Virus record (IMG/VR): IMGVR_UViG_3300026116_000004
Location: 5,499 to 69,498 of that record
Length of the DNA: 64,000 bases
Strand: one strand, 5' to 3'
DNA from: a virus
The position numbers and the translations under genes are program-made. Positions within the stretch are counted from its first letter, which is position 1; every line of letters begins with the position of its first letter. This document shows, in pieces, positions 1,606-57,656 of the stretch. Under the pieces are notes generated by a model. It made no database searches and was not told the DNA's origin. It was given only the letters and a program-made list of their open reading frames with translations.

Positions 1606-2685
1606 TCATTCAACCTCTGCAAAGTTGTCAGGTAACTTATCAACAGTGATATTGCCGTTCTTGAAATCTGCAATAAGTTTGCTTGCCTTTGCGAGTTTCG
1701 CCATCATCTTTTCATTCTTTTCACCAATTCTCTTCATAGCGTCTGTAGCATAGAAGAGTAAGCAAGGAAGGTCTTGAGGTTCAGACCTACGAATGAAATC
1801 TTCCCACTCAATATGAGTGACATTCGCGAGTTCCTGCCAACCATTGTCGTTGTAGATATCCCAATCTTCCAACAGATGTAACATCGCCTCAGACAATTGG
1901 AACTTGTTCTTGAATGGCATGGAGATCAGCGGCGATAGCTCTTTCGTAGAAGCTCTCGCGGTGGGAACACGAACGACTGAATTATTCTTCGCACGCGCCT
2001 CTTCCTCTCTTTTCTTCCTTTCCGCATCCAACCTCTCCTTTTCAGGACCACGCTGAACGGTGTTCCAATAATCATCGTTAGACGACTTGAAAGGTTGTCC
2101 TTGATCGAACGTCTTAGTGGACCAAGCTGCAGGAGAGAAGAAGTAAGGTTCCTGATCCGACGAGATAAGAAGACCTCTATTGTTCGACCCCGGCCAGAAC
2201 TTCTCCAAGATGTCTCTGACATACGGGTCTTCAAGATCAGCGATACCCCTTGTGCCCACTAAACGAGTGAGCATAGGTGTTAGCTGAAGTTCAGCATACC
2301 TACGGCTGTCAGATGCCCCCTGTAACGCCTCTGGATCGGTCTGCTGGCCCCTCCAAGCCTGCATGGTACCATTGTGCATGAAATACAACGAACGCTTCTT
2401 GGTGGACAGCACAGGGAACGGCTGGGTATTCGCCTCGTTAATTTCTCCTTCAGTTCTATGACGAAGATGAACAAAACGTTCAACATCCTCGTTATCCTTC
2501 AAAATCTTATAGATTTCTTGAGGATCACAAATCTTATCGTCAGAGTCCGAACAGCCCTTACGAACCTCAAGCTTTCCATTGGCCTTGAGGATAATGCCGT
2601 AACTATGCCAATTGTTGAACACACACGTCTCCAACTTCTCGTAAGGCAGAGTATAACCCGGCTGTTGAATAAAGATATTGCACAT
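1606..2685 (-). CDS. Class II (Ntn) glutamine amidotransferase
   Basis: True start MCNIF (catalytic Cys2) coupled by TAATG at 2685; HLRHRT, NTQPF, MHNG and SDS motifs. Confidence 0.85.
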   Translation of the reverse strand: MCNIFIQQPGYTLPYEKLETCVFNNWHSYGIILKANGKLEVRKGCSDSDDKICDPQEIYKILKDNEDVERFVHLRHRTEGEINEANTQPFPVLSTKKRSLYFMHNGTMQAWRGQQTDPEALQGASDSRRYAELQLTPMLTRLVGTRGIADLEDPYVRDILEKFWPGSNNRGLLISSDQEPYFFSPAAWSTKTFDQGQPFKSSNDDYWNTVQRGPEKERLDAERKKREEEARAKNNSVVRVPTARASTKELSPLISMPFKNKFQLSEAMLHLLEDWDIYNDNGWQELANVTHIEWEDFIRRSEPQDLPCLLFYATDAMKRIGEKNEKMMAKLAKASKLIADFKNGNITVDKLPDNFAEVE

Positions 2686-3071
2686 TACTTCGTTTCTTCC
2701 TTGCGCTCTAAAGACTTTTCCCAATCATCGTACGTTTTATATTCAGCTTTCGTATCTTTTTCCGTCCTAATGAGAGCCTTTGACCAGAGTTCAACAATAT
2801 TGTCTGTTTTCGATGAACGAAAGTAATCAACCTGCTTCCAACCATTGGTCCGGAGGATAGACTTCTCCTTTTCGTTGGTAGAAATGACAGTGCATAAAGC
2901 AAAATCATAACCGAACTTGCGAGCTGTGGTCAGTCTCTGTTCGTGTGCTACTTTACCACACCCTTTACCCCTGTTGTCTTTTGGTGTCCACACGTTGTGA
3001 AACACAGCAATCTGGTCACAGCCAGGTAACGAAGTGATCTCTGACACCACTCCTCCAACATTGTATCTCAT
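2685..3071 (-). CDS. GNAT-family acyltransferase
   Basis: RGKGCG acetyl-CoA loop; CTV...N...IL..NGW motif B. Confidence 0.75.
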   Translation of the reverse strand: MRYNVGGVVSEITSLPGCDQIAVFHNVWTPKDNRGKGCGKVAHEQRLTTARKFGYDFALCTVISTNEKEKSILRTNGWKQVDYFRSSKTDNIVELWSKALIRTEKDTKAEYKTYDDWEKSLERKEETK

Positions 3072-3838
3072 TGTGCTAAAGCCCTAGCATAGTTCTGAAC
3101 GGTAGTACCCGTAAGACCAGGTGCAGTATTAACCTCCAACACAAATGCCTTAACTCCCTTGCGCTTATCGTTATAAACGATGTCAACGGCACCGAAGTCA
3201 AGACCAGAATGTCTAATGGCCTCAATGGCGGCAGCTCTGACTTCATCTGGAGGGCGAATGTTTTCCCTCTGATAGATGAAACCATTTGCAAGGTTTCTGA
3301 TCTTCCAGTTGATGTCGTCACCACTGTCAGCCTTCTGCTTGGAGAGCACTTTACGCTGTTGGTCAATGATCTCGTTACCCACTACGTGAATACGATATTC
3401 TTCCGTCTTCTTTACGTATTCAGTATAAAGTGGAGCACGAACAAACCCATCAGGATGATCACGGTCCATAATAACAATACCGTTACCTGAATGACCATTA
3501 AGAACGGTACGAGCAACCACCACTTTGCCTTCTGCGCACCACCGGATGGCTTCTGCTTGGTCAGTCGTCCAGGGAGGAAGAATTTCATTGTTGCGTTCCG
3601 ACACCTTTCTAAAGAAGTCCAACTTGTTGGAAGCAATTCGGACAACTTCAGGCTTATTAATGATATTGCACTTTGCAACTTCAGGAGAAACTTGAGAAGA
3701 ACCCCAATTGATCACCCTCTTACGTTGTGATCCAACGAAACGAGAGTTTTCATTCTTGATTTTCGTGATACCCATTGCATCCTTGAGTGCAATAGCACCC
3801 TCAGAATGGGCATTCCATGAATAGATATAAGTAGGCAT
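3068..3838 (-). CDS. ATP-grasp peptide ligase (RimK-like, phage type)
   Basis: NKL, GHSGNGI, EYRIHV, DFGAVD and LEVNTAPG motifs. Confidence 0.9.
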   Translation of the reverse strand: MPTYIYSWNAHSEGAIALKDAMGITKIKNENSRFVGSQRKRVINWGSSQVSPEVAKCNIINKPEVVRIASNKLDFFRKVSERNNEILPPWTTDQAEAIRWCAEGKVVVARTVLNGHSGNGIVIMDRDHPDGFVRAPLYTEYVKKTEEYRIHVVGNEIIDQQRKVLSKQKADSGDDINWKIRNLANGFIYQRENIRPPDEVRAAAIEAIRHSGLDFGAVDIVYNDKRKGVKAFVLEVNTAPGLTGTTVQNYARALAQ

Positions 3839-5013
3839 TAGTCATTGTTTCTCCAAGGATCATTTACAACTGGCTGGTTTACCACACCACCAAGAATGTC
3901 ACCGCGTGCTTGACGAACAGGTATAGGACGAGCAGCTGCTCTTAAAGCTAAGTCTCTGATACGCTGCTCTTCCGCTTCCCAAGGGCGAATTGCTGCATCA
4001 CCATCGTCGAACTCAGCCTGAGGAATTTCTACATCGCCACCTTGACGAAGCACGGCGAGTTGTTCAATACCGCGCAGCTCTTCGAAAGGACGATTGTATA
4101 ACTGTCGGGCAATTGTGTCCAAGTCGGAAGACTTTACCTTCTTTGGTTTTTGGACAGCATCCAACTTGTCCCAACCCTTTGAGTCAGGAACTGATAACGC
4201 AATGTTAGCCGCATACCAGAAGTTATTCTCGATAAGTTTCGCTTCATCGTCAAACTTTAAGTTCTTTCTATACTTGCCAAAGATGTCCGTGAGTAGCTCT
4301 ACACCCTTGTCTTTGTAATTGTTGATGATATCCCCTGGATACATCTTGTCCTGACGAGAGAACTTGACAATCTCATGGAGAATACCAACCCAATCTTCAA
4401 TTTCCTTGATATCAGTCGTTCCTCTGAACGATCTTACTTCAAGAGAACCAAAGTTAGACAACGAATGAAGGTTCAACGCAGCATACTTAGTCAACTCACG
4501 GTCAAAGAGCATGTGTTGATAGTTCGGTTGTGATTTACCTTTCACTGTCGAAAGGTTCTTCAACATGTTAACAATGTTCTTGTAAGTCTCTTCTGCGTCA
4601 CACATAGGAAGACAAAACATGTTACCATTGCGTCCCTCACCTGAATACTTGATGAGTAGATTTTCAACGAGAGCGTATGTCGTTAAGAAGTTACCAAACG
4701 AAGGGAAACTCTCATTGAGCATGTTCACATGGACATGAACACTCGTTGTAATCGAATTTTTCTTGAAGTTAGCGTGAACTAACTTAGACTTGAACTCCTC
4801 AAGTGCCTGAGGGATCACATCGAAGTCCAGTGGTTGACGGAGTACGTACTCACGACCAAACCCACGGAGAGAACCATCTGCGTGAATATCCCAAAAGGCG
4901 AACTCGGGGATACGATACTCTGCATCGCTCTCCGTTTCGATCTCAAGACCGAACAAACCCTTATGTTTAGTAAAGGTTCGCCCAGTCTTTTCTAAAGCAT
5001 CACAAATCGACAT
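3838..5013 (-). CDS. Putative amidoligase (COOH-NH2 ligase, glutamine-synthetase-like fold)
   Basis: GLEIE, HADGSL, E, SVHVHVN, KYAALN and SLEVR motifs. Confidence 0.85.
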   Translation of the reverse strand: MSICDALEKTGRTFTKHKGLFGLEIETESDAEYRIPEFAFWDIHADGSLRGFGREYVLRQPLDFDVIPQALEEFKSKLVHANFKKNSITTSVHVHVNMLNESFPSFGNFLTTYALVENLLIKYSGEGRNGNMFCLPMCDAEETYKNIVNMLKNLSTVKGKSQPNYQHMLFDRELTKYAALNLHSLSNFGSLEVRSFRGTTDIKEIEDWVGILHEIVKFSRQDKMYPGDIINNYKDKGVELLTDIFGKYRKNLKFDDEAKLIENNFWYAANIALSVPDSKGWDKLDAVQKPKKVKSSDLDTIARQLYNRPFEELRGIEQLAVLRQGGDVEIPQAEFDDGDAAIRPWEAEEQRIRDLALRAAARPIPVRQARGDILGGVVNQPVVNDPWRNND

Positions 5014-5014
5014 T

Positions 5015-5692
5015 TCACTGAATATCCCAGGCTAATTCATGGGAAAGATAACGAGACACAATCCAACCCATGGCGTTGTTAGGAACTCTTACGAGCATTT
5101 CGTCAGGTGCGATCCACCCAACCCAACTGTCCTTGAAATACACATTGATGTTACCCATTGCATTAATGGACAAAGCAATGTTTCTAGAGACAGCCTTTTG
5201 ACAAATGATGTCTGCCTCTTTGAGGTTTACTACAGAAGTCTTGGAGTAAATACCCCTTAACTCCTTGATGGCGGAGTCGAGTGAAGGGTAGATTCCTTCA
5301 ACCATGTCTGCAAACTCTTTGGTGAAGAAGATGTTATCGACGTACTTCGCCCTACCCCCTCCATTACCCGTTGCAGACGAAATCCTGAGCGACCTTCCTT
5401 CGACACCTTGCTTTGTTCTCCTTGCAGGAATACGAGAGACGTAGACGACTTCTTTGCTATCCTTCTGGTTCATATAACCCAGAGGAAGGCTTGAAATGTC
5501 AAACTCTTCATCAGTTGACTTAATACGGAATTTGGCCTCCGCATTGGAACCCGCTCTGCAATCGTACAGATCGAGTTGTCCTTGCCTGTCCCTTACTCGA
5601 ACGTAAACTGGCGCACCCTTGTAACGACAAATAGTGCCATCGAGTTTCTGAGTAAGATCAACATCAGGAATTGTGCAGCGCATTGGCTTCAA
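5015..5692 (-). CDS. Hypothetical protein within the ligase cluster
   Basis: 225-aa ORF tightly packed between the two ligases; contains LPLGYMN...SRIPAR. Confidence 0.7.
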   Translation of the reverse strand: MKPMRCTIPDVDLTQKLDGTICRYKGAPVYVRVRDRQGQLDLYDCRAGSNAEAKFRIKSTDEEFDISSLPLGYMNQKDSKEVVYVSRIPARRTKQGVEGRSLRISSATGNGGGRAKYVDNIFFTKEFADMVEGIYPSLDSAIKELRGIYSKTSVVNLKEADIICQKAVSRNIALSINAMGNINVYFKDSWVGWIAPDEMLVRVPNNAMGWIVSRYLSHELAWDIQ

Positions 5693-6377
5693 TATCCTCC
5701 ATTCTCGAAATGATTGAACGATACATCATTCTACGGTCGTCTTCCTTTTCCACCCAGCGGGAGGAAGGGCTTCTAAGCTCAACTCCGTAGGTCTTAGGGC
5801 GAAACGAACTTTCTCCTCCGTAGTACCTGATGCGCTCGAACTCTTCAGGTGTAACCGGCTTGAAGTACGTCGCATTACGGAAGGACTTAGCGATATGTCT
5901 GCAGTCTTCAAAATGTGAAGGGTCAAAGGGATCGGCTCCTTCAGTCCACCCAAGATGCACGTGTCCCGCTGTCGTTCTGAATGGACGATGTTCGAGGTCT
6001 CCCGGAGGTGCTTTCTGCATTCCGGTTTCAGCAGAGTAGTCAGGATCGCAGCCAAGGATTTTGCTTTCTACTGGTAAGATGCTGAAGTACAGCGGATCGA
6101 ACCTAGCGATAGGAATGAAACGGAGCTTAAGGTCTCGATCAACCTTGTGAACCATTTCAGTCATCTGGTTAAGAACAGTAACAATGTTGTTATTGAACTC
6201 TTCTTCAGAATTAGCCGGCTCAATATTAAACTCAAGGGCCATACCGTCCACTTGGACAGCGCCCTTATCAACCTTGTGGGGTTCTTTCTTCGTCCCAGGG
6301 AACAAACCGTGGGCACTAATGAACTGTGCTCCATCATGAAGAAAAACTTCTGGGTCACAGCCGATAGTAACTTTCAT
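5664..6377 (-). CDS. phiEco32-like COOH-NH2 ligase type 2
   Basis: IGCDPE, DGMALE, GCDPD, RTTAGHVH and FRPKTYGVELR motifs. Confidence 0.9.
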   Translation of the reverse strand: MKVTIGCDPEVFLHDGAQFISAHGLFPGTKKEPHKVDKGAVQVDGMALEFNIEPANSEEEFNNNIVTVLNQMTEMVHKVDRDLKLRFIPIARFDPLYFSILPVESKILGCDPDYSAETGMQKAPPGDLEHRPFRTTAGHVHLGWTEGADPFDPSHFEDCRHIAKSFRNATYFKPVTPEEFERIRYYGGESSFRPKTYGVELRSPSSRWVEKEDDRRMMYRSIISRMEDIEANALHNS

Positions 6378-6378
6378 G

Positions 6379-7431
6379 CTAGTTCAAAGCCTTTCTACTG
6401 GTTAAATCGATCTCTAATTGCTTTTCTTTTTGATACTGTAACTCGTAACACTCTGCACAAGTATACACGTTCACAGGTTCTTCGTGACCCTTGTATTGGT
6501 CGTAAAGGTCCATTTCTTTCCTACAATTCCTGCAAATCTCAGGAAGAATTTCTCTACCTTTTGGAGTATTCTGCGTCAAGCGCAGAGGGGTCTCATTACT
6601 GTTTGACGGATAAGTACCCAAACGAGATTTGTTCCCTATAGGAATAACCTTCGCTCCTGCCGCTGGACCCCATACTGTTCTAGCCTCTAAGTTTGCTTGA
6701 AACCCGTAGAGAGGTTGCTTGTCCCAGTCAGGTTCTCTATTAGTTTCAATATCGTCTGGACCAAAACGATACACATAGTCAGGTTCGAACGCAGTGATCT
6801 CCTTGAGCTTCACACCATGCCGGGAAGCAGCGAACTGGATCATACGAGCTTCGCTAGCCCAGTAAAACACCTTGCGTTCTTTGTTGATTGCGTAAAACAG
6901 TGGTCTAGAAATTTCTCTCGTAAACACAAACTCAAAGTGTTTCTTTTCAAACGCAACTATCGCGTATGCACTCTTAGAAGAGAGACCACGGAGTACATTT
7001 TCAATACCACGCTTGTCCATGTCTTCGAACATCATTTCTGAGTCCGTTTTCGTGGAGTCTTTGTATTGATCATCTTTTAGAGTACCATTGTGCATGCCAA
7101 TGATATTGGTCTTTTCGAAAGGATGTGCGTTCTCTGCGTTCACAGCACCCATCGTTGCTGCTCTCACGTGAAGCGCCATGAACGTATCGTGTGTATCGTT
7201 CAGGATTTTGTTGTCAGCTTCCTTTGATGAAGTCTGATTGAACCAAAGAAAATAACCAACTTCGTGTTCATTCTTGAGGATGCGATACCGGCGCTTCTTT
7301 CCACTATGGTAACCTTGGAGAACGCCAGTGCCGTCAATCCCCCTTAGGCCCAGAACATAAGCGAGATCGCGCATCATACTTATATCTGATACGTTGATCC
7401 CTGGACCCATCATTCCTGCATGACCACACAT
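6379..7431 (-). CDS. Class II (Ntn) glutamine amidotransferase with C-terminal Cys cluster
   Basis: MCG start; RGIDGTG, HVRAAT, NAHPF, HNGTL, TDSE; CxxC...CxxC tail. Confidence 0.9.
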   Translation of the reverse strand: MCGHAGMMGPGINVSDISMMRDLAYVLGLRGIDGTGVLQGYHSGKKRRYRILKNEHEVGYFLWFNQTSSKEADNKILNDTHDTFMALHVRAATMGAVNAENAHPFEKTNIIGMHNGTLKDDQYKDSTKTDSEMMFEDMDKRGIENVLRGLSSKSAYAIVAFEKKHFEFVFTREISRPLFYAINKERKVFYWASEARMIQFAASRHGVKLKEITAFEPDYVYRFGPDDIETNREPDWDKQPLYGFQANLEARTVWGPAAGAKVIPIGNKSRLGTYPSNSNETPLRLTQNTPKGREILPEICRNCRKEMDLYDQYKGHEEPVNVYTCAECYELQYQKEKQLEIDLTSRKALN

Positions 7432-7441
7432 TCTATGCCTT

Positions 7442-8080
7442 TCAGTTGAACATTAGGTAGTCGATTAAGTTGAAGAAATAAGCTTGATTGCCACTGTTTT
7501 TGTTTTCAGACAACCAGTACTCAGGGTGAGGTTGATAACACAAAGACATCGTTTCCTTGTACCATACAACCTCCGTGTCGTACTTTGGTCTCTTTCTGCT
7601 CGCCTTTTTGCTCTCAAACTGTGTTGCACAATGGGCGACTGCGATAACAGTTCCTTCTTTCGAAGGGATCATCATCTGATGGTGTGTACTTGTGACAAAA
7701 ACAGTCTTCTTTGACAAAAGAAGGTCAAGCATCTGGTGACCACCAGTTAACCCATGGTTGTTAACGTGTTGCCACATAGAACCACCAGACATCACGTTGA
7801 GAAACTGTCCACCTCGACAAATACCCACCTTTGGGAGGGATCGGTATTTCTCAAAGATTTCCATTTCTTTGATGTCACGTTTCCAATTGTTGTGGGTTTT
7901 CTCATGGGGTTCCTCCTGGTAGAGTTCAGGACTTACATCCTCTCCACCAGTAAAACAAATAAGGTCAGCTTTTGTATCCTTATCGTTCTCATCAACCAAC
8001 TCCCACCCACGATTGAGAAACATCTTCTGAGTGGCTTGGGTTGGTAGGATGATTTTTACTTTTCTCTTAGTAGTTGACAT
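7442..8080 (-). CDS. Class I glutamine amidotransferase / peptidase C26 (PuuD-like gamma-glutamyl hydrolase)
   Basis: TGGEDV, GICRGGQ, STHHQ and QPHPE (Cys-His-Glu triad). Confidence 0.9.
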   Translation of the reverse strand: MSTTKRKVKIILPTQATQKMFLNRGWELVDENDKDTKADLICFTGGEDVSPELYQEEPHEKTHNNWKRDIKEMEIFEKYRSLPKVGICRGGQFLNVMSGGSMWQHVNNHGLTGGHQMLDLLLSKKTVFVTSTHHQMMIPSKEGTVIAVAHCATQFESKKASRKRPKYDTEVVWYKETMSLCYQPHPEYWLSENKNSGNQAYFFNLIDYLMFN

Positions 8081-10377: not shown

Positions 10378-10719
10378 TTAGTCTTTCACAGTGTATTCAA
10401 TTTCAATCCAATCAATGATTTCGTAGCAATGTAGCATGTCAAAGTGCTCTTTGTTCACGTAAGACTTGCCACTTATGAAAGGCATTGTGTTTTTAGCAGT
10501 TTTATACTTTAAAATAGGTATCCATGCTTTGAGAACAATAGGTTCTTTGTATTCAATCCAATATGTCTTTGCGTCATCTAAACGCAATCTATCTGAGTGA
10601 AAGTGTCCATCAGAGCCTACCCACCAGATAAGAACTGTTTGTTGGTGAATTTTAGCTACTGTCCAATGACTAGCAGAGTTTAGTGATGTGTACTCTTTAC
10701 CTTCAAGGATTTCAGTCAT
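10378..10719 (-). CDS. Hypothetical protein
   Basis: ATGA overlap with the upstream gene. Confidence 0.65.
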   Translation of the reverse strand: MTEILEGKEYTSLNSASHWTVAKIHQQTVLIWWVGSDGHFHSDRLRLDDAKTYWIEYKEPIVLKAWIPILKYKTAKNTMPFISGKSYVNKEHFDMLHCYEIIDWIEIEYTVKD

Positions 10720-11114
10720 CTTACCACTCTACCCTGCCACAAATGGCATCCATTTTCATTTACACCACATTCGGACATTTCTGTGTAGGGGAAGTGTTTA
10801 CCTCCCACATACATAGAAACTTCTAGTGGTTCTTCTTGGTTTCCAAGGACATAGGCTTTTACCACCTTTCGATGGTACATATAGCCTTCCCCTTCGAGAC
10901 GATCCAAACGAGCGAGAGTAGCATCATTGTCGCCAATGTCCCACACCTCTCCTATCGCTTTACTGTTTTCGTCTTCCTTGGCTACAGGAAAGCCATACTG
11001 GTAGAGTTTAAACCCCTCGACAACAGCGTCACCTATCTTTCTATGAGCACCTTCTGATAGGATGTAGTTATTGCCGTACCCACTTTTCAGTGTTCCATAA
11101 ACAAAAACTTTCAC
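10716..11114 (-). CDS. Gamma-glutamylcyclotransferase (AIG2/GGACT family)
   Basis: VFVYGTLK, GEVW, LDRLEG, YHR. Confidence 0.92.
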   Translation of the reverse strand: MKVFVYGTLKSGYGNNYILSEGAHRKIGDAVVEGFKLYQYGFPVAKEDENSKAIGEVWDIGDNDATLARLDRLEGEGYMYHRKVVKAYVLGNQEEPLEVSMYVGGKHFPYTEMSECGVNENGCHLWQGRVVR

Positions 11115-15484: not shown

Positions 15485-15504
15485 AGTCAGCCCCTTGTTT
15501 GTTT

Positions 15505-15687
15505 TTACTTGTCTTGCCAGTTATGGTCTGGCACGCATGTGTAACCCACGGCAACGCGGTTATCTTGTATTGTGCTGTTCAACTGAGCTTGAGTACCTGC
15601 ATACTGACAGGTGTCGAAGTCTTTGAACCAACCAAGATCAGTCATGGATACACCATTAGTGATCCACAAGAATAAAACCAATTTGAA
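15505..15687 (-). CDS. Small secreted/membrane protein
   Basis: Hydrophobic N-terminus; F....C......CVP pattern. Confidence 0.6.
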   Translation of the reverse strand, partial: FKLVLFLWITNGVSMTDLGWFKDFDTCQYAGTQAQLNSTIQDNRVAVGYTCVPDHNWQDK

Positions 15688-15826
15688 CATCACCAAGCCT
15701 CGTTTCAACCCCTGTTATGTAGTTCTTTTTTGCGTTAGAGTGATTTCAAGAGGTTACAACATTATTGTAACATTGCCACTCGCATAGCAAACTCCCTCTG
15801 TTAGAGTTCACATCCTACATTTAGAC

Positions 15827-15982
15827 ACAAAAATAGCCCCTAGTGAACACCCTGGGCGACGGAGGGACTGGAAACGTGCCAAGGTATCACTAGGGGCGTA
15901 TTCGTGGTAAACTAGGAGGGGGATAGACAGTGCGCGAGTTAGGGAACACGCACATGATTACCTAGTCAATCGACCACGAACC
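15827..15982 (-). ncRNA. Candidate sRNA: two long hairpins with C-rich (anti-SD) loops and a U-tail
   Basis: Stems 15901-15908/15973-15980, 15911-15916/15961-15966, 15930-15934/15949-15953 and 15836-15846/15887-15897. Confidence 0.6.
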
Positions 15983-16576
15983 TGTTTATTCCGAATTTCG
16001 TTGAGCCTTTTAAAGACATGCTCAGGTCTGTTTTAGAGAATTTCTTGCTGGCCCTACCGGCTAACTGCTACAGGTCAACTGTTTGTGCGGACGGGCAAAG
16101 GCTTCTCTGTTTACCTAGGTTCTATTCGGACACGCTCCGGGTGAGTTGTTGCCCTACCCAAGGGCTCAATTTATCTCTATCAGGTTTTTTCAAGTGGACA
16201 GTTTAACCACATTTCCAGGTGGTATCTCTATCTGTGCCGATGCTTTTTTGGTCTTAATTTTATGTTCTAGCGCCTAGACCTAGCGCTCAACTACACAGCA
16301 TTCTAGTTGTATAATCCACGGCGATCGTTCTCCTACAAAATACCCATGTCCATGACCACTTCTATAAACAAACATGGGCGAACCAAATATTTACCAAATA
16401 GGTGTTGCCTAGTGAAACATGCGGCAGGAGAATGGAAGGTCAACCCGCCACTTGCCCAAATCACACTTAGCATTGTGTTCCTTTTTTCATTCCATTGGAA
16501 TTACTTGGTTCACTCTGCCACCTTCCTTGGCCGTATTAGGTACCATTCTGAAATGTGACTAGTTAACACTAGACAA

Positions 16577-16612
16577 CAAAAAACCCCACCGGACGAACCT
16601 AGTGGGGTTTTC
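16577..16612 (-). terminator. Intrinsic terminator (possibly bidirectional)
   Basis: AAAACCCCAC/GTGGGGTTTT inverted repeat flanked by A/T runs. Confidence 0.8.
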
Positions 16613-16646
16613 AACTGCCTAGAGGCACGTCTCTTGGACGAATTGG

Positions 16647-17225
16647 CTAGTCTTTGTTAGACTTAAATGGAAGAAATACTGTACCCTTTTTTTCATTCGG
16701 GTTTTTAACAGTTATTTTTTCTTTAGGTGGTGCTCCCGTTTGAGTAAAAGGCATGTACTTCTTTACCGTTCCATCTTTTGCAAACGACCTATACTTAAAG
16801 TCGTCTGGTTCAGGATGAAAACCATCATTACCAGTTGCGATTGTAACGGGTTTAGGTTTGATCTTTGCTCGTTTATCTTCAACGTTCTTGATGTGCATTG
16901 CCATTTCTTCCTTCAAAGTTTGTTTACGCTTTACAACTGCATCGTCCAAACCTTGGAGTTTATTCATCCGTTTTTGCATGATGAAATAAAGCTTATTTTT
17001 GTTCAATATAGAACGCTCTATTTCCGCACGCTGTACAGGTTCCCTAATCCCACGATGGATCAAGTGTTTTATTTGTGCTTCCACTTGTTTCATCTTTCGG
17101 GCAAGCTTGTGAATTTGTTCCTTTATAGGGACTTCCTTCACGTTTAATTCCAGGTGCCCTCTCATTTGGCCACTAAATGACCTTTGATGGGTAACGTCTT
17201 TCCAGTCTCTTGAAATCTTTGTCAT
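16647..17225 (-). CDS. Hypothetical basic coiled-coil protein
   Basis: Likely start MTKIS after GGA; lies between two terminators. Confidence 0.7.
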   Translation of the reverse strand: MTKISRDWKDVTHQRSFSGQMRGHLELNVKEVPIKEQIHKLARKMKQVEAQIKHLIHRGIREPVQRAEIERSILNKNKLYFIMQKRMNKLQGLDDAVVKRKQTLKEEMAMHIKNVEDKRAKIKPKPVTIATGNDGFHPEPDDFKYRSFAKDGTVKKYMPFTQTGAPPKEKITVKNPNEKKGTVFLPFKSNKD

Positions 17226-17265
17226 TGGTTTTTCCAGTCCCAAGTTTTCAAAGGTATTTAAACGC

Positions 17266-17311
17266 AAAAAACCCCACGCCAAGACAATGAAGCCTTGAAA
17301 CGTGGGGTTTC
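17266..17311 (-). terminator. Intrinsic terminator
   Basis: AAACCCCACG/CGTGGGGTTT stem with a U-run on the minus strand, just after the stop of 17329..18135. Confidence 0.8.
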
Positions 17312-17328
17312 TTTAGTTCACGTTGCCG

Positions 17329-18135
17329 TTAAGCCGAAACGCGATTTTCGCTTTCCGTTGCAGGCTTATTGCCGCCGGTCTGACCGACAGCCGTATCGGT
17401 TTCTTCCGAGATTTCTTCCTTCGGAATAGACTTGCCAGCGGCTTCACTTGCCGTTGCCAAATCATCGATTTCCTTCCGGCTCTTTGCGTCAAGCGGGCTG
17501 GAATTGACCATACGCAGAAGTTCGACGCGACCCATGCCGGAATGAGGCAAGTCTTTCGCAATGCGCTTGAAGGCCGAGATAAGGCCAGAAAGTGCCTTTG
17601 CCGGCGTGAGAACGTTGTCGGTTGCCGCCTGTTGAGGCGTAACCCAAGCAATCTCACGAAACTCGCCTTCGGTCTTGGAACGAGCATTCTTAAGCCCGTC
17701 CTTGATCGCTTGCGCAATTTCCGGCTTGTCCGACTTGTTAATGGTGAAAAACTCGCCGGTGTTCTTGCCGTCCTTCATAGGCTTGGCCGTGAACTTGAAG
17801 AAAGGAACCGGGCGGACTTTCCACTTGGTTTCATCTTCGGGATCACGCTGGCCGCCGATGCCATACGCATCCATCACGTTGTTGACGTAATAGGCGCGAA
17901 AGGCCAAACTGTCCTTCGGATGCATTTCCGAAAACAGCATGTTCATGTAAACGCAGCGTCCGTGCTGTATGGCGAACCAAACAGCCGCAGCGGCGCCATC
18001 GGCGATTGTATTGAAGCTTTCGTGTGACGCTTTGACGGCAAGGCCGACAAGACGCTTCACGCGTTGCTCTTCGGTTTCCTGCTTACCCTTGTCGACATTG
18101 GCCGCACGGGTTGTAGCAATTGAGACCTTAGCCAT
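17329..18135 (-). CDS. Hypothetical early protein, probably highly expressed
   Basis: GGAAGGA RBS; GC3-rich codons; own terminator. Confidence 0.85.
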   Translation of the reverse strand: MAKVSIATTRAANVDKGKQETEEQRVKRLVGLAVKASHESFNTIADGAAAAVWFAIQHGRCVYMNMLFSEMHPKDSLAFRAYYVNNVMDAYGIGGQRDPEDETKWKVRPVPFFKFTAKPMKDGKNTGEFFTINKSDKPEIAQAIKDGLKNARSKTEGEFREIAWVTPQQAATDNVLTPAKALSGLISAFKRIAKDLPHSGMGRVELLRMVNSSPLDAKSRKEIDDLATASEAAGKSIPKEEISEETDTAVGQTGGNKPATESENRVSA

Positions 18136-18230
18136 AACTGTTATTCCTTCCATTTTGGTTTAGCTTTGTCATGAAACGAAAAAGACGCAAAGAGACAAAG
18201 CATAAGCCTTGCGCCCATCGCGTTCCATAA

Positions 18231-18252
18231 CTTATTCGATTGTCAAACAACA
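18231..18252 (-). promoter_or_regulatory. rrn-type boxA antitermination element (copy 2)
   Basis: TGTTGTTTGACAATCGAATAAG; no -10 element at 17 nt from the embedded TTGACA. Confidence 0.6.
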
Positions 18253-18254
18253 CA

Positions 18255-18570
18255 CATTGGACCGTGTTGCGCATTAAGCAATCGATGCAAACCTTGCTCT
18301 AGGATTTTGGACATACCTAGAGTGTACTCCAAAAACGGTTTCCCGTTTGGAGAATAGGTTTGACGCCACTAGCGCCGGACCCTACCCCGCAAATGCGGTA
18401 CCTTGTCACCTCGAAAGGCGGTTGCGGGAAACCCTATGGCTTGGCACCTACAGGCACGAAGCGCGGCGGATCGGCCGCAGACAAGGCAAAAAGCCCATTC
18501 CGGACATATGCTCACAGATTGTTCCGCCTGGAAAGTCACTTAGTGTTTCACTATGTAACAATCCGTGATC
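18255..18570 (-). ncRNA. Large multi-stem structured RNA / 5' leader
   Basis: About 10 nested stems; G-U pairs and UUCG/GAAA tetraloops on the minus strand. Confidence 0.65.
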
Positions 18571-18594
18571 CTTGTGTGTCTCATATATTGAGTA

Positions 18595-18609
18595 GAACAA
18601 ATAGAGAAC
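18595..18609 (-). promoter_or_regulatory. Alphaproteobacterial LexA (SOS) box
   Basis: GAAC-AAATAGA-GAAC on plus = GTTC-N7-GTTC on minus. Confidence 0.7.
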
Positions 18610-18813
18610 GTATTCCAGGGGAGATTGGAGCTAGGCAATGGGGTTAGATAGGGTCTATTCAGCCCGTAGAGCGCGCTACAGTCGTTTCTCCCATTGATAG
18701 GGTATCACACACTCACTTTTGAGAACGCAACTGTAGGACCCCTACAAAGGCGATTTAAGAGCTATCACTAAACGTCAATGGATAGGAATATTTTCCTAAA
18801 AAGAATAACGCAA

Positions 18814-18849
18814 ATAGCTCCAAGAGCTTTTTAGGTCCCTTGGAGCTAT
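18814..18849 (-). terminator. Hairpin, probable terminator
   Basis: ATAGCTCCAAG/CTTGGAGCTAT 11-bp inverted repeat just after the stop of 18859..19074. Confidence 0.55.
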
Positions 18850-18858
18850 CTTTAAGTG

Positions 18859-19074
18859 TTATCTGTTATAAGCCTTGATTATTCGCTGTATAACCGTGTC
18901 ATCGTCACTAGGACTAGTACACATTATTGACTGTGATTTAGGATTATCACGCTTATCAGCGATTTGAGCCGCTCTAACCGTGTCTTTATCCCATGACCCA
19001 CAATCAAAACACCAAATCCTACCAGTTCGCACAAGCAAGAAATGGTATTGATTGAAAGCTAGATTGTTTCTCAT
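18859..19074 (-). CDS. Hypothetical early protein
   Basis: ATGA overlap. Confidence 0.6.
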   Translation of the reverse strand: MRNNLAFNQYHFLLVRTGRIWCFDCGSWDKDTVRAAQIADKRDNPKSQSIMCTSPSDDDTVIQRIIKAYNR

Positions 19075-19301
19075 TTGCCTGCTTGCTTTCTCGTTTGTTG
19101 ATACAACGCGTCGTTTGCTAGTCTACAAAAGTAACTTTGGTTAAGTTGGAAGTATTCAAAGTTAATGATGTTCCAAACTGCCCTTTCTTCTAGAATGCCA
19201 CCATAACGCGAGGCATTACGGAAGATTTCCGTAGCAACATCACTAGTTTGATTTCCAGCTAACCATGAATTACGAATGTATTTCACCATATCGTTACGCA
19301 T
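19071..19301 (-). CDS. Hypothetical early protein
   Basis: GGAAGGA RBS before MRNDM. Confidence 0.65.
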   Translation of the reverse strand: MRNDMVKYIRNSWLAGNQTSDVATEIFRNASRYGGILEERAVWNIINFEYFQLNQSYFCRLANDALYQQTRKQAGK

Positions 19302-19436
19302 AGTCTTTCCTTCCATTTTGACGTTTCACAAGAAAACACTCTGTTTTTGAGAGTGAATGCCTGTCATTCACAAGAGTTTAACAAAGCCGCCTGCTATTCT
19401 GGTTTCTAGATTAAATCATTAGTCGCTTATCAGCAA

Positions 19437-19676
19437 CTAAATCGGTTGTGTTAGTTCAATGACAAATAGACTGTCATCCATTACATACTCAATGCACCTA
19501 GTTTGATTGTCAGTTAAAGCATTGATAAGGTTTTCTACATTGGCAAATACTGGCATTTGCTTATGTGGATTGTCATGCTGTGACATATAGAAAAGTGATT
19601 GCTCTATATCACCTTCCTTTTTAGGTAGCTTACGTATCTTGATACTCTTGAAGATAGCTTTATTGACGAAAACCAT
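19437..19676 (-). CDS. Hypothetical early protein
   Basis: TAATG coupling. Confidence 0.6.
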   Translation of the reverse strand: MVFVNKAIFKSIKIRKLPKKEGDIEQSLFYMSQHDNPHKQMPVFANVENLINALTDNQTRCIEYVMDDSLFVIELTQPI

Positions 19677-19912
19677 TATCTTACAAATGCCTCCTTTACA
19701 GTCTCAAACCATGCTCTAGCACGTTCTGGACTATCAAAGTTTAGATCATGCAAGATTACTTCCTTGGTTTTCAACTTGATTATGTATCTAACCATGTTGA
19801 TTGCATGTCCTTTTACATAACCTTTAGTTTCTTCAGGCAGTGTTATTAGTTCAATCTGCAAATTCACATTAGGAATATTGCAGACATCACCATATTTGTT
19901 CTTACGTGGCAT
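19676..19912 (-). CDS. Hypothetical early protein
   Basis: GAGGG RBS. Confidence 0.65.
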   Translation of the reverse strand: MPRKNKYGDVCNIPNVNLQIELITLPEETKGYVKGHAINMVRYIIKLKTKEVILHDLNFDSPERARAWFETVKEAFVR

Positions 19913-20405
19913 TAGTTTTCCCTCTTGCGTTGTAGCAAGCGACTTAACTAAACTCTTGTGTGTTCCTACTAGCTAATAAAACCGCTCGCATGAGCGTTGG
20001 ATTTCAGATTAAACTGATTATCAGCCAGTAGATTAGGGCTGATATGATTATCCCTAAGATAATCCCTTGGATGTTATTCAGTTGCATTAGATTTCACCTC
20101 TCAAAGCCGCTAATGCAGCTTCCTTTGCCGCCTTAGACGCTATTTCTTTCACGATTGCTTTGATTGCCGTTTGGATTTGCTTATCCATTGTTCAATCCTC
20201 CTTTGGAGCAAAGAACATGAATGCAAGAAACACAACTGCTACCATTGGAACTGGAAAGCAGAAGATTAGCAGTTCAAGGTATTGGTACATTGCTAGTCCC
20301 TCTTGTTTGAATGCCTCTAGAGCGATCTAGAGAGCCCATACAAGCGGTTTAACTAGCCAGTAGGAAATCCCAAGAGTTAATAAAACCGCTTGAATGAGCG
20401 ATTGA

Positions 20406-20576
20406 TTATTTATTGTCGTAACGAGTTGCTGCGATACGTTCTAGCTCTAGTGTCTCTTGATAAGACAAACGTTCTAAAGCGTCTAAGGCTTGCTTGTGTT
20501 CCTTAAGGTCTGCCCATCCTTTCTTGTACAAACGGCGAGCGATTTCTTCGATAGAAAGCTTGATTGGCTTAGACAT
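20406..20576 (-). CDS. Small hypothetical protein (56 aa, below track cutoff)
   Basis: MSKPIKLSIEEIARRLYKK...; manual translation. Confidence 0.5.
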   Translation of the reverse strand: MSKPIKLSIEEIARRLYKKGWADLKEHKQALDALERLSYQETLELERIAATRYDNK

Positions 20577-20597
20577 GGTTAGCTACTTTTGTGTTGA

Positions 20598-20780
20598 TTA
20601 GAAGTTATAAGGCTTGAAACCGCTATCTTTGCAGATTTGGTTTGCCTCTTTCTTTCCAGATACAGCAATCTTTTGAGCGTTGTTGAATTCATCACCATTG
20701 CAAGGCTTAGGGCAGATAGTAAGCACATAGCCTTGTTTGGTCTTATTCAGATACGCGACTGCGATATGAGTTGATTGCAT
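20598..20780 (-). CDS. Hypothetical protein, first gene of the leftward early operon
   Basis: AGGAG RBS. Confidence 0.65.
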   Translation of the reverse strand: MQSTHIAVAYLNKTKQGYVLTICPKPCNGDEFNNAQKIAVSGKKEANQICKDSGFKPYNF

Positions 20781-20894
20781 TTGGATAGCTCCTGATTAGG
20801 TCACAGAAGCTCACACAAGCGGTTTGACTAACCCTTGGGATAGATCATGCCAAACACAACGAAAGACGCTCTAGGGCGCTTCGCTGTGAGTGGT

Positions 20895-20915
20895 CTTATT
20901 CAGTTGTCAAAGAGC
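20895..20915 (-). promoter_or_regulatory. rrn-type boxA antitermination element (copy 1)
   Basis: GCTCTTTGACAACTGAATAAG; compare E. coli boxA TGCTCTTTAACA. Confidence 0.75.
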
Positions 20916-20947
20916 GGGCTGATGTCCCTGGAAAGCACAGGTGAGCC

Positions 20948-20974
20948 ATAGTAGAACAAAAGTAGACCATACAA
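20948..20974 (-). promoter_or_regulatory. Early promoter with overlapping LexA-like box
   Basis: TTGTAT-GGTC-TACTTTT-GTTC-TACTAT: GGTC-N7-GTTC immediately before a -10-like TACTAT. Confidence 0.55.
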
Positions 20975-21060
20975 ATGTGGCAACAATAAGGCATGTCAAG
21001 CCGCTCGTTTCACTCGCTCGTCACGCTCTTCGAGCGCTCCAGCCCCTAAATCGTACAACC

Positions 21061-21088
21061 AGTATGATAACATGATTAAACCAGTCAA
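21061..21088 (-). promoter_or_regulatory. Possible leftward sigma70 promoter
   Basis: TTGACT-16 nt-CATACT. Confidence 0.45.
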
Positions 21089-21199
21089 GATAAGAAATAA
21101 CCATAAGAGTACAAGCCGTGAGACGGCGCGCATAACCTACTAAATAACCAATATATACACGTAAGAACTGATTAATTTCGTACAAAATGCATTATTCTC

Positions 21200-21228
21200 T
21201 TGACAAACAATTACAATTGTAGTATAAT
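21200..21228 (+). promoter_or_regulatory. Consensus sigma70 promoter
   Basis: TTGACA (21200-21205), 17-nt spacer, TATAAT (21223-21228). Confidence 0.9.
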
Positions 21229-21861
21229 TAATGTATAGACTAAAGAAAACTATGAGCTATTCGAAGATCATGTTTCATACTATGGATTTGTTCTTCAGAT
21301 ATTGTTCTTATCAAGTGTACACATCGATAAGTACAAACTAGTAAGAACAATCAAGACTAAAGAGAACTAAACAACCTTAAGCTAGAACCTTATGGGAATA
21401 CTAAAGAGTAACTTATGTAGTTATAACTCTAGGAGTAATACAGTAATAACATGTAGCATTGTCTAGTGGATGAACTGACCATAAGTAGACAAACTAAAGT
21501 AGTCCCTAAGTGTAGGCGCTTAGAGCTCCCATTCTCCTCTAGTTTATTCTAGCTCATTTCTCTTCAAGAGAACACCTGGCCGCGCTCCTAATAACTCCTG
21601 GAGTATATCAAGTAGACTATATTTATACGTGTAGTTTATACTCTAATAGAGTAAGTAACGATAGAATTATATATTGGTTGTGATAAGTATAACGCCCAGT
21701 TATATTCACCTGTGGAGAAAGTATATTACCCCTGGTGAGCCACAGGTGCCAGGCCGGGGGGTACCCATATCGTATACGCCATTGGCATAATTTGGGTAAA
21801 AACGAGGTGTAAACTTTCACCTTAAGAAACAATATAGTTTTGAATAGAGGTTTAACAAATC

Positions 21862-50502: not shown

Positions 50503-50848
50503 AGTAGTCCTCACTAGCACGCCAGTTGTCTAAGATTTCCTGAGTTGCAGTCGAGTTATTACCAATGACTTCAGGGCGATCATCAATCCAGACATCCGGG
50601 TTCCAACCATGATCCACGGGGGACTTCTTGTCAACAAACCAATTGCAAAAGAAACGTTTAGCGATACCATCAGTATAAATAACAGGGATATCTGAACGGA
50701 CCTGGTTCTCTGAGAGTTTATCATCTACAGGAGAACGATACGTAACAATACGTACCTCGTGACCTTTCTTCTTAGCTAGGTCAACAACGTCATTCCAGAA
50801 ATCTCTATCTAAGTTATAACACTTGTCGTAATCAAGACCGATCTTCAA
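50495..50848 (-). CDS. HAD-superfamily phosphatase
   Basis: IGLDYD motif I, VTYR, K, WIDD motif IV. Confidence 0.75.
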   Translation of the reverse strand: MKIGLDYDKCYNLDRDFWNDVVDLAKKKGHEVRIVTYRSPVDDKLSENQVRSDIPVIYTDGIAKRFFCNWFVDKKSPVDHGWNPDVWIDDRPEVIGNNSTATQEILDNWRASEDYYA

Positions 50849-51275
50849 GTTTATTCCCTTCTGTCCAAGCCTCTACAGCGTTAGGATACTTCTCAATAAT
50901 AGCTGTGGCCTTTTCGTTTAGTTCTTTAATCCAACCATCATTCATTTTCGGGGGTCTATCATCGTTGAACTTACCAGCGATCATAGCATCACGGAGAACC
51001 ATAAGGGTTGCAATAGCTTTGACCACATGGGAGAGACCGCTATCAGGATCGATGTCTTCTCCTTCCCACCAGGCCATCATATGTCTAAATAAAGCATCAT
51101 AATAAACACTCGCAGAAATACCTGCAACTCTATAATTATGTCTGCCATACTTACGAGCCCCTTCGAGCATAGCTAATCCTACTTCCATCATTGCGGGAGA
51201 GGACACAGTGCTCATAGGGGCTTTTTTCGTTCCTACACTATCCTTAGGGTTAGTATCTTTCTTACTTGCTTCCAA
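50832..51275 (-). CDS. dATP/dGTP diphosphohydrolase (DUF5664-type)
   Basis: NPKD..G..K, GARKYG..N, YYDAL.RH..AW..GED.DPDSGL.H. Confidence 0.85.
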   Translation of the reverse strand: MEASKKDTNPKDSVGTKKAPMSTVSSPAMMEVGLAMLEGARKYGRHNYRVAGISASVYYDALFRHMMAWWEGEDIDPDSGLSHVVKAIATLMVLRDAMIAGKFNDDRPPKMNDGWIKELNEKATAIIEKYPNAVEAWTEGNKLEDRS

Positions 51276-53174: not shown

Positions 53175-53651
53175 TCATTCAGCGTCTACCACTTCATAAT
53201 CATGAAGTTTAAACCATTCTCCTGAATGTAAACTGTCTTTGAACTTCTCATGAAATTCTTTCTCTCTATAACCACCGTCTTCAATAAATCGAACTATACT
53301 TATGTGGTAAGGGTTAGCAGCCTTTAATTGTGAGACTCTTCGATTTAAATCGTCTGTTCTTCCTATTTTAACAAATTCATTGCAACGAATGAAATAAAGA
53401 TGTCTACCAGTCTCATGTATCATTTTAATTCTCTTCGAAGAAAGTTCTTTCGCTAGACACCCACAAGATTTAACTGAGTTAGACACTAAATGAGAAGACT
53501 TTACTTGAGTCTCATTTCCACAAGAGCAGGTACACCTCCATAAGATGTACCCACCCTTACGAGTCTTACCAACTGGCTCTACTGCTGTTAATCTTCCGAA
53601 GACTTTACCACTATGGTCTTTAGCTTTATGTGGTAATATCAACGAATTCAC
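53175..53651 (-). CDS. Putative homing endonuclease (Cys-rich N-domain + T5orf172/GIY-YIG-like domain)
   Basis: FGRLT...WRC.C.CG...SCGC; LYFI...VKIG...R...L...NP...E...H...GEWF. Confidence 0.75.
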   Translation of the reverse strand: MNSLILPHKAKDHSGKVFGRLTAVEPVGKTRKGGYILWRCTCSCGNETQVKSSHLVSNSVKSCGCLAKELSSKRIKMIHETGRHLYFIRCNEFVKIGRTDDLNRRVSQLKAANPYHISIVRFIEDGGYREKEFHEKFKDSLHSGEWFKLHDYEVVDAE

Positions 53652-56692: not shown

Positions 56693-57330
56693 ATCTTAGC
56701 AAGGTCTTGTATTTCCTTCTGAGCATGAGGATCAATACGTAGTTTATAAGCTCTAGCCCAAGCAGCTAGAGAACCCGTCGTATAATACTCGGTGTACATC
56801 GATTGAGGGAGAACCATACGAGCTTGTTCAGGGGCGACTTCGTTTTCAATCATTGTATTGTAAAGCCACTCAGCGTGGTCTAGAAATTGAAGATACAACT
56901 CCTTGACATCTTTAGTTGCAAATTCAGATCTAATCCATCCATCCTCGTATCTTTCTTTATCAATTTCCCATTGAAGTTTTAAGATGAATTCATCAGATGA
57001 TCCTTGTTTAACTGATCCTTCTGGTCGTTTACGCCAAGTGTCAGGAGTGAAGAATTCAGGGGCATCATCAACATAACGTCTGGAGACTTCATTGTAGGAA
57101 AAACCCACCATGTGTTTAAATCTCTGTCTTGCAACAAAAATGGGCACTTTTTCTCTAAGAGTGATTTGTACATGGGTGAAGGGTGTGAAATGATTGTTTC
57201 TCGCTAGAAAATTTATTAGACCTTGGTTCTGATCTTTAGTGTAATTACTGGCTTCCTTATGAAAGGAAACTCTTGCTGCGTCTGCAACACGGTCGTCAGA
57301 ACCCATGAAATCAATTAAGGTTACCTGCAA
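56629..57330 (-). CDS. thyX: Flavin-dependent thymidylate synthase
   Basis: AARVS, H.TPF, ARQRFKH...NEVSRRY, EQARMVLP, AQKEI. Confidence 0.95.
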   Translation of the reverse strand: MQVTLIDFMGSDDRVADAARVSFHKEASNYTKDQNQGLINFLARNNHFTPFTHVQITLREKVPIFVARQRFKHMVGFSYNEVSRRYVDDAPEFFTPDTWRKRPEGSVKQGSSDEFILKLQWEIDKERYEDGWIRSEFATKDVKELYLQFLDHAEWLYNTMIENEVAPEQARMVLPQSMYTEYYTTGSLAAWARAYKLRIDPHAQKEIQDLAKMWQDTIGNIKELDYSWKALTE

Positions 57331-57656
57331 ATTATAGGCTCCAAATAAGAAAAAAGTTCTTGAGCCTTCTTTAGTCTACGCTCTCCTAAATGAGGCATAA
57401 CTCTTATTAAAGTATCAAAAACTTCTTGTTGTCTTTGTATTGTTAAAATCCATGTAGGTTTTCTAGTTGGGCGGGGTGCCCTATAAGACACCCTTCCTAC
57501 ACCCAATTCTTTATGAAGTTTATTGATAATATCTTCATCAGTCATTTCACATTGGATAGAACACTGAAATGTTTTACCCTTTCGTCGTTTGAAAATACTA
57601 AAACAACCTTCACCTTCTAGAATACCAGAGGACCACTTAAAGTCCTCTTCCATCAT
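57321..57656 (-). CDS. Single-motif LAGLIDADG homing endonuclease
   Basis: WSSGILEGEGCF; MTD; G.V; PHL..R. Confidence 0.8.
   Translation of the reverse strand: MMEEDFKWSSGILEGEGCFSIFKRRKGKTFQCSIQCEMTDEDIINKLHKELGVGRVSYRAPRPTRKPTWILTIQRQQEVFDTLIRVMPHLGERRLKKAQELFSYLEPIICR

Follow-up and report, generated by a model that had tools for sequence, protein, structure and literature searches.

BoxA, an element of bacterial ribosomal RNA (rRNA) operon (rrn) leaders, initiates assembly of the rrn antitermination complex and is recognised by NusB-NusE through eight nucleotides (positions 1-8; PMC3177189). Its consensus is given as E. coli UGCUCUUUAACA and GYTCTTTAANA (PMC13753749, PMC5725501). The complex, compared here as NusB, NusE/S10, NusA, NusG, SuhB and S4, is reported to block Rho and to move NusA away from hairpin stabilisation (PMC8632103), and boxA is described as working at non-rRNA genes as well (PMC5725501). 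Here we describe boxA 1, a site in the predicted untranslated leader of an early operon that runs leftward in an uncultured soil phage; its sequence supports its assignment as an rrn-leader-type boxA. It is located in a 64-kilobase (kb) window, by which we mean the whole stretch of DNA that was analysed, corresponding to bases 5499-69498 of a 69.5-kb IMG/VR virus record. We consider it reasonably probable, judging from the sequence, that the leftward early transcript recruits host NusB/NusE in the manner of an rrn operon and without an N protein.

The locus resembles lambdoid nut sites with N in being a phage early leader RNA with a boxA that is predicted to engage host Nus factors. In lambda the order is boxA and then boxB with a conserved N-binding loop, whereas here the loops and stems of the downstream hairpin differ among six compared leaders, boxA is of the full rrn type, and no N-like family was found in scans of the open reading frames (ORFs) of the window. 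The lambda boxA is shorter than the rrn type. Outside the lambdoid phages, antitermination by the N-like protein Gp17 is described for the mEp021 group (PMC11893012). At the boxA in the 5' untranslated region of suhB, a cellular and repressed gene, boxA alone brings Nus factors to a non-rRNA transcript (PMC5725501), and HK022 put is presented as a factor-independent, RNA-mediated antitermination element (PMC6256539). Like put, the leader described here would be a cis-acting RNA that renders host polymerase resistant to termination with no phage protein involved; no likeness to put was found in sequence or in Rfam. HK022 put is not known to use boxA or Nus factors. BoxA elements were reportedly also described in CRISPR array leaders by Stringer et al. 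in 2020. Within the full-text library that our literature search covered, papers dealt with lambda-type N/nut and with cellular boxA, and none described an rrn-type boxA in a phage without N.

Leader 1 of the leftward early operon

The features of leader 1, in order of transcription, are as follows.

21061-21088, minus strand: upstream promoter-like site TTGACT-16-CATACT, 9/12 matches in a consensus scan
20994-20999, minus strand: -35-like TTGACA of the leader 1 promoter, aligned in six leaders
20917-20947, minus strand: two-part hairpin GGCT..CCTG / CAGG..AGCC, which ends 1 nucleotide (nt) before boxA 1 and contains CTTTCCAGG
20915-20895, minus strand: boxA 1, GCTCTTTGACAACTGAATAAG, with the rrn-leader-type core GCUCUUU GACAA and the 3' extension CUGAAUAAG
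20855-20888, minus strand: hairpin after boxA 1, CACAGCGAAGCGC...TTTCGTTGTG, a stable predicted fold
20844-20851, minus strand: conserved GGCATGAT, aligned as (G/C)G(C/T)ATGAT in 6/6 leaders
20815-20830, minus strand: conserved 16-nt TAGTCAAACCGCTTGT element, invariant in 6/6 leaders, with more copies at 20355-20340 and 19950-19935
20598-20780, minus strand: first ORF of the leftward early operon, 60 amino acids (aa), no family

The pattern TTTGACAAYYGAATAAG has two exact matches in the window, both on the minus strand and both where a sequence-only reading of this DNA had placed boxA-like strings (boxA 1, and boxA 2 in a second leader); about 3e-5 exact matches per window are expected by arithmetic. 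Allowing up to three mismatches adds two matches, each at three, and shuffled sequences average 0.85. At positions 2-8 boxA 1 reads GCUCUUU and five related leaders read GUUCUUU, equal to both forms of the consensus given above. BoxA 1 is on the sense strand, approximately 115 nt ahead of the first ORF and 80-185 nt past promoter-like sites near which transcription may start. The boxB-like inverted repeat GGCT..CCTG-loop-CAGG..AGCC noticed ahead of boxA 1 is indeed present, in the rrn order of hairpin then boxA. It is not the minimum-energy fold of the window leader, whereas the equivalent hairpins of the relatives are.

Five related leaders were compared with that of the window. Two of them, from G001 (68.3 kb, complete) and M290 (a 1.85-kb metagenome contig), came from boxA-pattern scans and their discovery is thus biased. 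The other three were located without using boxA: V3 (70.7 kb, complete) was reached via a 964-aa structural protein, and L385 and L395 by scanning with TAGTYAAACCGCTTGT, a conserved word distinct from boxA. Of the 41 matches in the latter scan, four belong to related leaders (V3, G001, L385, L395), all with a boxA 78-80 nt upstream, and the other 37 are unrelated. Identities to the window are 62% for the large terminase (TerL), 62% for the capsid and 55% for the portal protein in G001, and 66%, 83% and 78%, respectively, in V3. DNA searches of the phage collection with the region, in near and distant mode, yielded no match.

The block G[CT]TCTTTGA[CA]AAYYGAATA is invariant and at the same place in all leaders of the six-way alignment, while the flanks diverge; the only long invariant blocks are boxA, (G/C)G(C/T)ATGAT and TAGTYAAACCGCTTGT. 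Because the same block stands at the same place in the five related leaders, boxA 1 is, as judged from this alignment, not a chance match. In the predicted folds, 6/6 phage leaders form a hairpin that stops 1-3 nt short of boxA, with differing stem sequences, and every leader forms a second hairpin of -13 to -18 kcal/mol with unrelated stems, which starts 3-4 nt after GAATARG(A)C(C). The spacing from boxA to GCATGAT is fixed at 40-45 nt. In the window, the 46 nt from boxA 1 to GCATGAT fold at -16.8 kcal/mol, and a 62-nt segment with more flanking pairs at -20.9 kcal/mol. The boxA core is mostly unpaired in the predicted folds, and forcing it open costs 0.7-2.9 kcal/mol. In the leaders, a -35-like box TTGAC[AG], which reads TTGAAA in V3, lies 60-115 nt before boxA; the spacer after it is GCC-rich and leads to an A/T-rich -10-like box. 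The upstream site at 21061-21088 has no aligned counterpart in the relatives and may be the main leftward promoter of the window genome.

RNAalifold sets UUUGAC(AA) of boxA against (UU)AGUYAAA of the downstream conserved element, as would be seen if the block were kept for pairing with TAGTYAAACCGCTTGT about 75 nt downstream, in a long-range helix such as an RNase III site, and the boxA likeness were incidental. Later intergenic copies of the element do pair with an upstream complement, which suits such a role. The boxA-TAGTYAAA pairs are, however, all invariant and thus show no covariation, the sole natural core change (C to A in L395) breaks a helix pair and is uncompensated, and single-sequence folds do not use this helix. 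It also leaves the G[CT]TC and GAATA parts unexplained, and host rrn leaders have the same 21-mer with no TAGTYAAA element. We regard incidental likeness through such a helix as improbable.

Several further observations concern the leader elements. The loop (G)UU(A/U)ACC(Y)(N)GU is conserved in the pre-boxA hairpin of four of the six leaders (M290, V3, L385 and L395, i.e. L290, L302, L385 and L395), the window not being among them; it resembles GUUAAACC of the downstream 16-mer, and this likeness may reflect a shared protein or RNA contact. GGCATGAT starts a mini-frame of six codons (window 20851-20828, minus strand), which ends at a TAG that is also the opening triplet of the TAGTYAAACC element. 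By eye, the mini-frame was read in three of the first four leaders compared, that of M290 stopping after two codons, and no Shine-Dalgarno sequence was seen before it. The TAGTYAAACCGCTTGT element recurs in the first three early intergenic regions, the copies in G001 being at 327, ~750 and 1202. Later copies pair with the upstream complement AAGCGGTTTTATTA, which overlaps a weak terminator-like hairpin, to form long hairpins of 10-14 bp, which may serve for processing, for reloading or as protein sites. On the opposite strand, a perfect consensus sigma-70 promoter, TTGACA-17-TATAAT (21200-21228, plus strand), is directed towards the structural genes, the first rightward ORF following after about 630 nt, and equally perfect rightward promoters stand at the matching place in G001 and V3.

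Likeness to host rrn leaders

A 16S match was present in 25 of 41 genomes sampled from the Hyphomicrobiales (the order of Chelativorans); two with partial 16S were dropped and 23 (27 loci) with full-length 16S were kept. The strict core G[CT]TCTTTGACA is present in 17/23 genomes, mostly 183-258 nt before 16S, and the TTTGACAANNGAATA extension as well in 10/23. Phage boxA 21-mers are 0-2 mismatches away from Hyphomicrobiales 16S leaders, with boxA 1 of the window at 2/21 and the V3 boxA identical to one leader in 21/21 positions. A hairpin ends 0-4 nt before boxA in 15/16 Hyphomicrobiales rrn leaders. An alignment with rrn leaders had been suggested as a check; the comparison with those of Hyphomicrobiales agrees, for boxA 1 as for the hairpin-then-boxA order.

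The phage leader and bacterial rrn leaders are alike in this order and in the G[CT]UCUUU core, and probably in the placement of boxA in an untranslated leader after a sigma-70-type promoter, which is predicted for the phage; the Hyphomicrobiales 16S leaders share the 3' extension with the phage, for which no phage protein partner is evident. They differ in that the phage boxA precedes protein-coding genes and is followed by a phage-specific hairpin, GGCATGAT and TAGTYAAACCGCTTGT, where host rrn leaders have a AAGAAAGAGAAAC stretch instead. No conserved GT-rich block that would represent boxC follows boxA in the six leaders; GTTGTGTTTGG lies inside the downstream stem of the window and is not found in the relatives. 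BoxC is dispensable in E. coli.

A Rhizobiaceae-like host had been guessed from the sequence. This guess fits the boxA match to Hyphomicrobiales leaders, the metagenomes in which the stretch occurs (rhizosphere and soil DNA runs only, and no RNA run) and the presence of rhizobiophages among the named relatives. By large terminase, the closest named relatives are the roseophages CRP-738 and CRP-3 (56-57% identity), and further ones are Sinorhizobium phage phiM6 and Rhizobium RHph phages (~51%) and also HMO-2011. The clade consists of lytic-looking, uncultured soil podophages related to rhizobiophages.

Across bacteria, a 17-mer scan of one genome per species gave at least 122 matches in at least 120 loci. 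Among the 122 matches listed, 47 are preceded by NTC (CTC 23, TTC 14, ATC 7, GTC 3) as compared to ~6% expected, and the boxA core is therefore completed there. Thirteen of the 120 listed loci are directly upstream of a 16S or 23S gene. When the first 20 loci were checked with Rfam, no rRNA was seen within 2 kb of 16 of them; the 17-mer is thus over-represented at rrn sites without being confined to them. Many bacterial matches with a full boxA prefix (e.g. ATTGCTCTTTGACAAYTGAATAAG in Acidobacteriota; L010, L014, L015, L112) show no rRNA in the 2 kb around them. Downstream of 20 boxA-prefixed loci of this kind, the ORFs included no ribosomal or Nus genes, and these loci may be non-rRNA boxA targets.

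The host likeness bears on two further explanations of the block. One is that the motif acts in DNA, with TTGACA as the -35 of a further early promoter or with the block bound as an operator by a regulator of the phage. TTGACA does match the -35 hexamer perfectly and TAGAAG stands 16 nt downstream in 3/6 leaders, but TAGAAG is without the final T, and in none of the six leaders does a -10 hexamer, with A and T at positions 2 and 6, occur at a distance of 16-18 nt downstream. Moreover, a -35 role needs neither the invariant G[CT]TCTT before the hexamer nor the GAATA after it, L395 has TTGAAA, and the same 21-mer occurs ~200 nt ahead of 16S in the rrn leaders of hosts. We hold an action in DNA to be quite improbable. 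The other explanation, a recently captured scrap of host rrn or a chance match without function, takes up the presence of strings typical of bacterial rrn leaders in a low-G+C phage and the degraded look of boxA 2. We disfavour it as very improbable: the block is invariant in six leaders though the phage proteins have diverged to 62-83% identity, no likeness to host leaders is seen in the flanks of the block, and the exact matches in the window far outnumber those expected.

The second leader and the leftward arm

Downstream in the leftward operon the window has a second leader with the following features.

20935-20927 and 18535-18527, minus strand: CTTTCCAGG, one copy in each leader, read from the sequence
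18225-18605, minus strand: structured untranslated RNA of the second leader, which starts at TTTGTTCTACT and contains CTTTCCAGG
18252-18231, minus strand: boxA 2, TGTTGTTTGACAATCGAATAAG, in which core position 5 is G instead of C; a 274-aa ORF begins about 80-100 nt further on
17329-18153, minus strand: 274-aa ORF, no family, downstream of boxA 2 and followed by a strong terminator at ~17310-17265

CTTTCCAGG had been taken for a signal shared by both leaders. Its two copies are where they were seen, yet it is absent from the leaders of the five relatives and is thus not a conserved signal; at the level of sequence, it marks likeness between the two leaders of the window itself. TTTGTTCTACT is also common to both (20960-20950 and 18601-18591), and three shared words stand in the same order. 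Resampled sequences match the observed sharing in 0.5-1.3% of 2000 trials.

The claim of a second rrn-type boxA stands as far as the string and its place are concerned. In its core, however, boxA 2 of the window has a G at position 5, where the V3 counterpart keeps GUUCUUU, and it is partly paired in the minimum-energy fold, its tail GAAUAAGU pairing with the 5' AUUUGUUC. In lambda boxA, the substitution C5A is reported to lower NusB-NusE affinity (PMC3177189). Because of the G at position 5, the C5A effect in lambda and the partial pairing, we consider boxA 2 a plausible but weaker site than boxA 1. One Hyphomicrobiales rrn leader carries GTTGTTTGACAA, the variant found in boxA 2 of the window. 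A positional counterpart is present in one relative only: V3 has GGTTCTTTCTCAATTGAATAGACC and then an identical AACGCGATGG ahead of a homologous ORF (30% identity). In G001 the whole second-leader module is absent, and no relatives of the 274-aa ORF were found among the viral contigs searched, so that boxA 2 is comparable with V3 only.

The 381 nt from TTTGTTCTACT to boxA 2 fold at -132.6 kcal/mol (z = -3.5; 0/100 shuffles as good), and the V3 counterpart (L317 12470-12070, minus strand) has z = -4.0, both RNAs being ~380-400 nt long. Apart from short islands, the second-leader regions of the window and V3 have ~37% identity, which is chance level. No minus-strand ORF of more than 56 aa lies between 18858 and 18154. 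Only the two tRNAs passed the gathering score in Rfam, and in 15500-21300 nothing credible came up at an expectation value (E) of up to 5.

With this structured RNA in view, boxA might recruit Nus factors to an outcome other than antitermination. Either the first genes would be repressed or attenuated in the manner of E. coli suhB, or the early polycistronic RNA, with the structured RNAs in it, would be chaperoned and processed as rRNA is. Nus factors at the suhB boxA are reported to repress and not to activate (PMC5725501), conserved hairpins flank boxA 1, and long inverted repeats like processing sites follow between the early genes; the strong structure of region 2 would suit Nus-dependent chaperoning or processing. 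The suhB-type sites searched for in PMC5725501 are, however, less than 50 nt from the start codon, as compared to ~115 nt for boxA 1 and ~80-100 nt for boxA 2. BoxA 2 also comes after the structured RNA and not before it, and therefore cannot chaperone the folding of that RNA. Such an outcome appears unlikely to us, with a minor share of our confidence.

The operon in which the two leaders lie was outlined from ORF orientation, which divides the phage genome into two arms, and from terminator-like sites.

start near 21000, to the left end and round the circle to window 50036, minus strand: leftward arm, ~40 kb
21862-49993 of the window, plus strand: rightward arm with terminase, portal, capsid, tail and lysis genes
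near 18847-18797, 17310-17265, 16615-16575 and 15900-15830, minus strand: terminator-like hairpins with T runs
20400, 19996, 19355 and 18505, minus strand: weaker terminator-like sites

The terminators pointed out beforehand were recovered as hairpin-plus-T-run sites on the sense strand. The early unit, put at ~20 kb in the sequence-only reading, is larger by gene orientation (~40 kb). The leftward arm encodes two tRNAs and, in addition to small early ORFs, contains genes for replication and nucleotide functions as well as an amidoligase/amidotransferase cluster; its operon includes two untranslated stretches of ~700 and ~940 nt. The ~940-nt stretch corresponds to window 16646-15709 (minus strand), lies between the two strong terminators at about 16615-16575 and 15900-15830 and has no Rfam match at E up to 5. 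The record has a 99-nt terminal repeat at its ends and a G+C content of 43%.

That no RNA polymerase or N-like gene is visible agrees with our family scans: neither 41 ORFs searched against PHROGs nor 61 further ORFs searched against Pfam included an RNA polymerase, sigma or N/Q family. Six-frame searches with PF04542 gave no match, nor did those with PF00940 (T7-like RNA polymerase), a result that is weak alone as control genomes gave none either. Consensus sigma-70 promoters are present in the window.

Other genes of the leftward arm (window 1606-8080 and 50832-51275, minus strand) include a cluster with amidoligase, COOH-NH2 ligase, glutamine amidotransferase and S6-glutaminyl-transferase-like members. 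A gamma-glutamyl cyclotransferase-like gene (10716-11114) and the dATP/dGTP diphosphohydrolase N-terminal domain PF18909 are also present; together with the amidoligase-type cluster they hint at nucleotide or DNA modification. Endonuclease-like ORFs of LAGLIDADG and T5orf172/MUG113 type (window 57321-57656 and 53175-53651, minus strand), beside thymidylate synthase and ribonucleotide reductase genes, probably encode homing endonucleases.

Proposed antitermination without N

From the sequence, position, conservation and host likeness of boxA 1 we infer Nus binding and read-through along the following lines. The early transcript would carry a copy of the host rRNA leader signal, a hairpin and then boxA, ~115 nt before the first gene. 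On leaving host RNA polymerase, nascent boxA 1 would bind host NusB-S10(NusE), and NusA, NusG and probably SuhB/S4 would join to form an rrn-type elongation complex that resists termination with no phage N. This complex would shield the ~40-kb leftward unit from Rho and, to some extent, from intrinsic terminators. The long untranslated stretches of that unit, its two tRNA genes and its numerous hairpin-plus-T-run sites are where such protection would come into play. The weaker boxA 2, at the 3' end of the ~380-nt structured RNA, may serve to load the complex again ahead of the gene block that follows.

Several points weigh against recruitment of NusB/NusE in this manner. On the phage side, the -10 of the conserved promoter is poor in the window (CATTTG, 20977-20972), RNAalifold pairs boxA with the TAGTYAAA element as described above, boxA 2 has a transversion at core position 5 and is partly paired, phiM6 has no boxA match with up to two mismatches, and no boxA with the extension was found at 80 HMO-2011-like TerL loci. 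On the host side, the strict core is missing in 6/23 Hyphomicrobiales genomes. The exact string TCTTTGACAAYYGAATA was found in 3/301 sampled genomes of the class, a search that is uninformative in that many assemblies are probably without rrn operons and in place of which 16S leaders were sampled directly. With regard to the mechanism, a small N-like protein among the unassigned early ORFs is possible. In addition, rrn antitermination is inefficient at intrinsic terminators in E. coli, and for this reason operons may truly end at the strong terminators of 17.3, 16.6 and 15.8 kb, with weak promoters such as 15790-15761 after them.

A more far-reaching version of N-independent antitermination is that the whole conserved leader forms a self-contained, N-free module, comprising the hairpin, the host-type boxA with its clade-specific 3' extension, the second hairpin, GGCAUGAU and UAGUYAAACCGCUUGU, and mimics more than the NusB-S10 site. 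UAGUYAAACCGCUUGU, found again behind every one of the first early hairpin/T-run sites, would then be a reloading or put-like signal. We offer this version tentatively and give it a small chance of being correct. Heavy early transcription of boxA might also draw NusB-S10 off the host rRNA operons.

Work on phages and Nus factors centres on lambda-type N/nut in enteric bacteria, whereas here the signal is that of the host rRNA leader, with no N-like partner. The comparison also points to AAYYGAATARG as a conserved 3' extension of boxA in alphaproteobacterial rrn leaders. BoxA and an extension that matches Hyphomicrobiales leaders could help in assigning hosts to uncultured phages. If the favoured reading is true, phages that depend on host polymerase would have a simple, protein-free means to traverse long, partly untranslated early operons.

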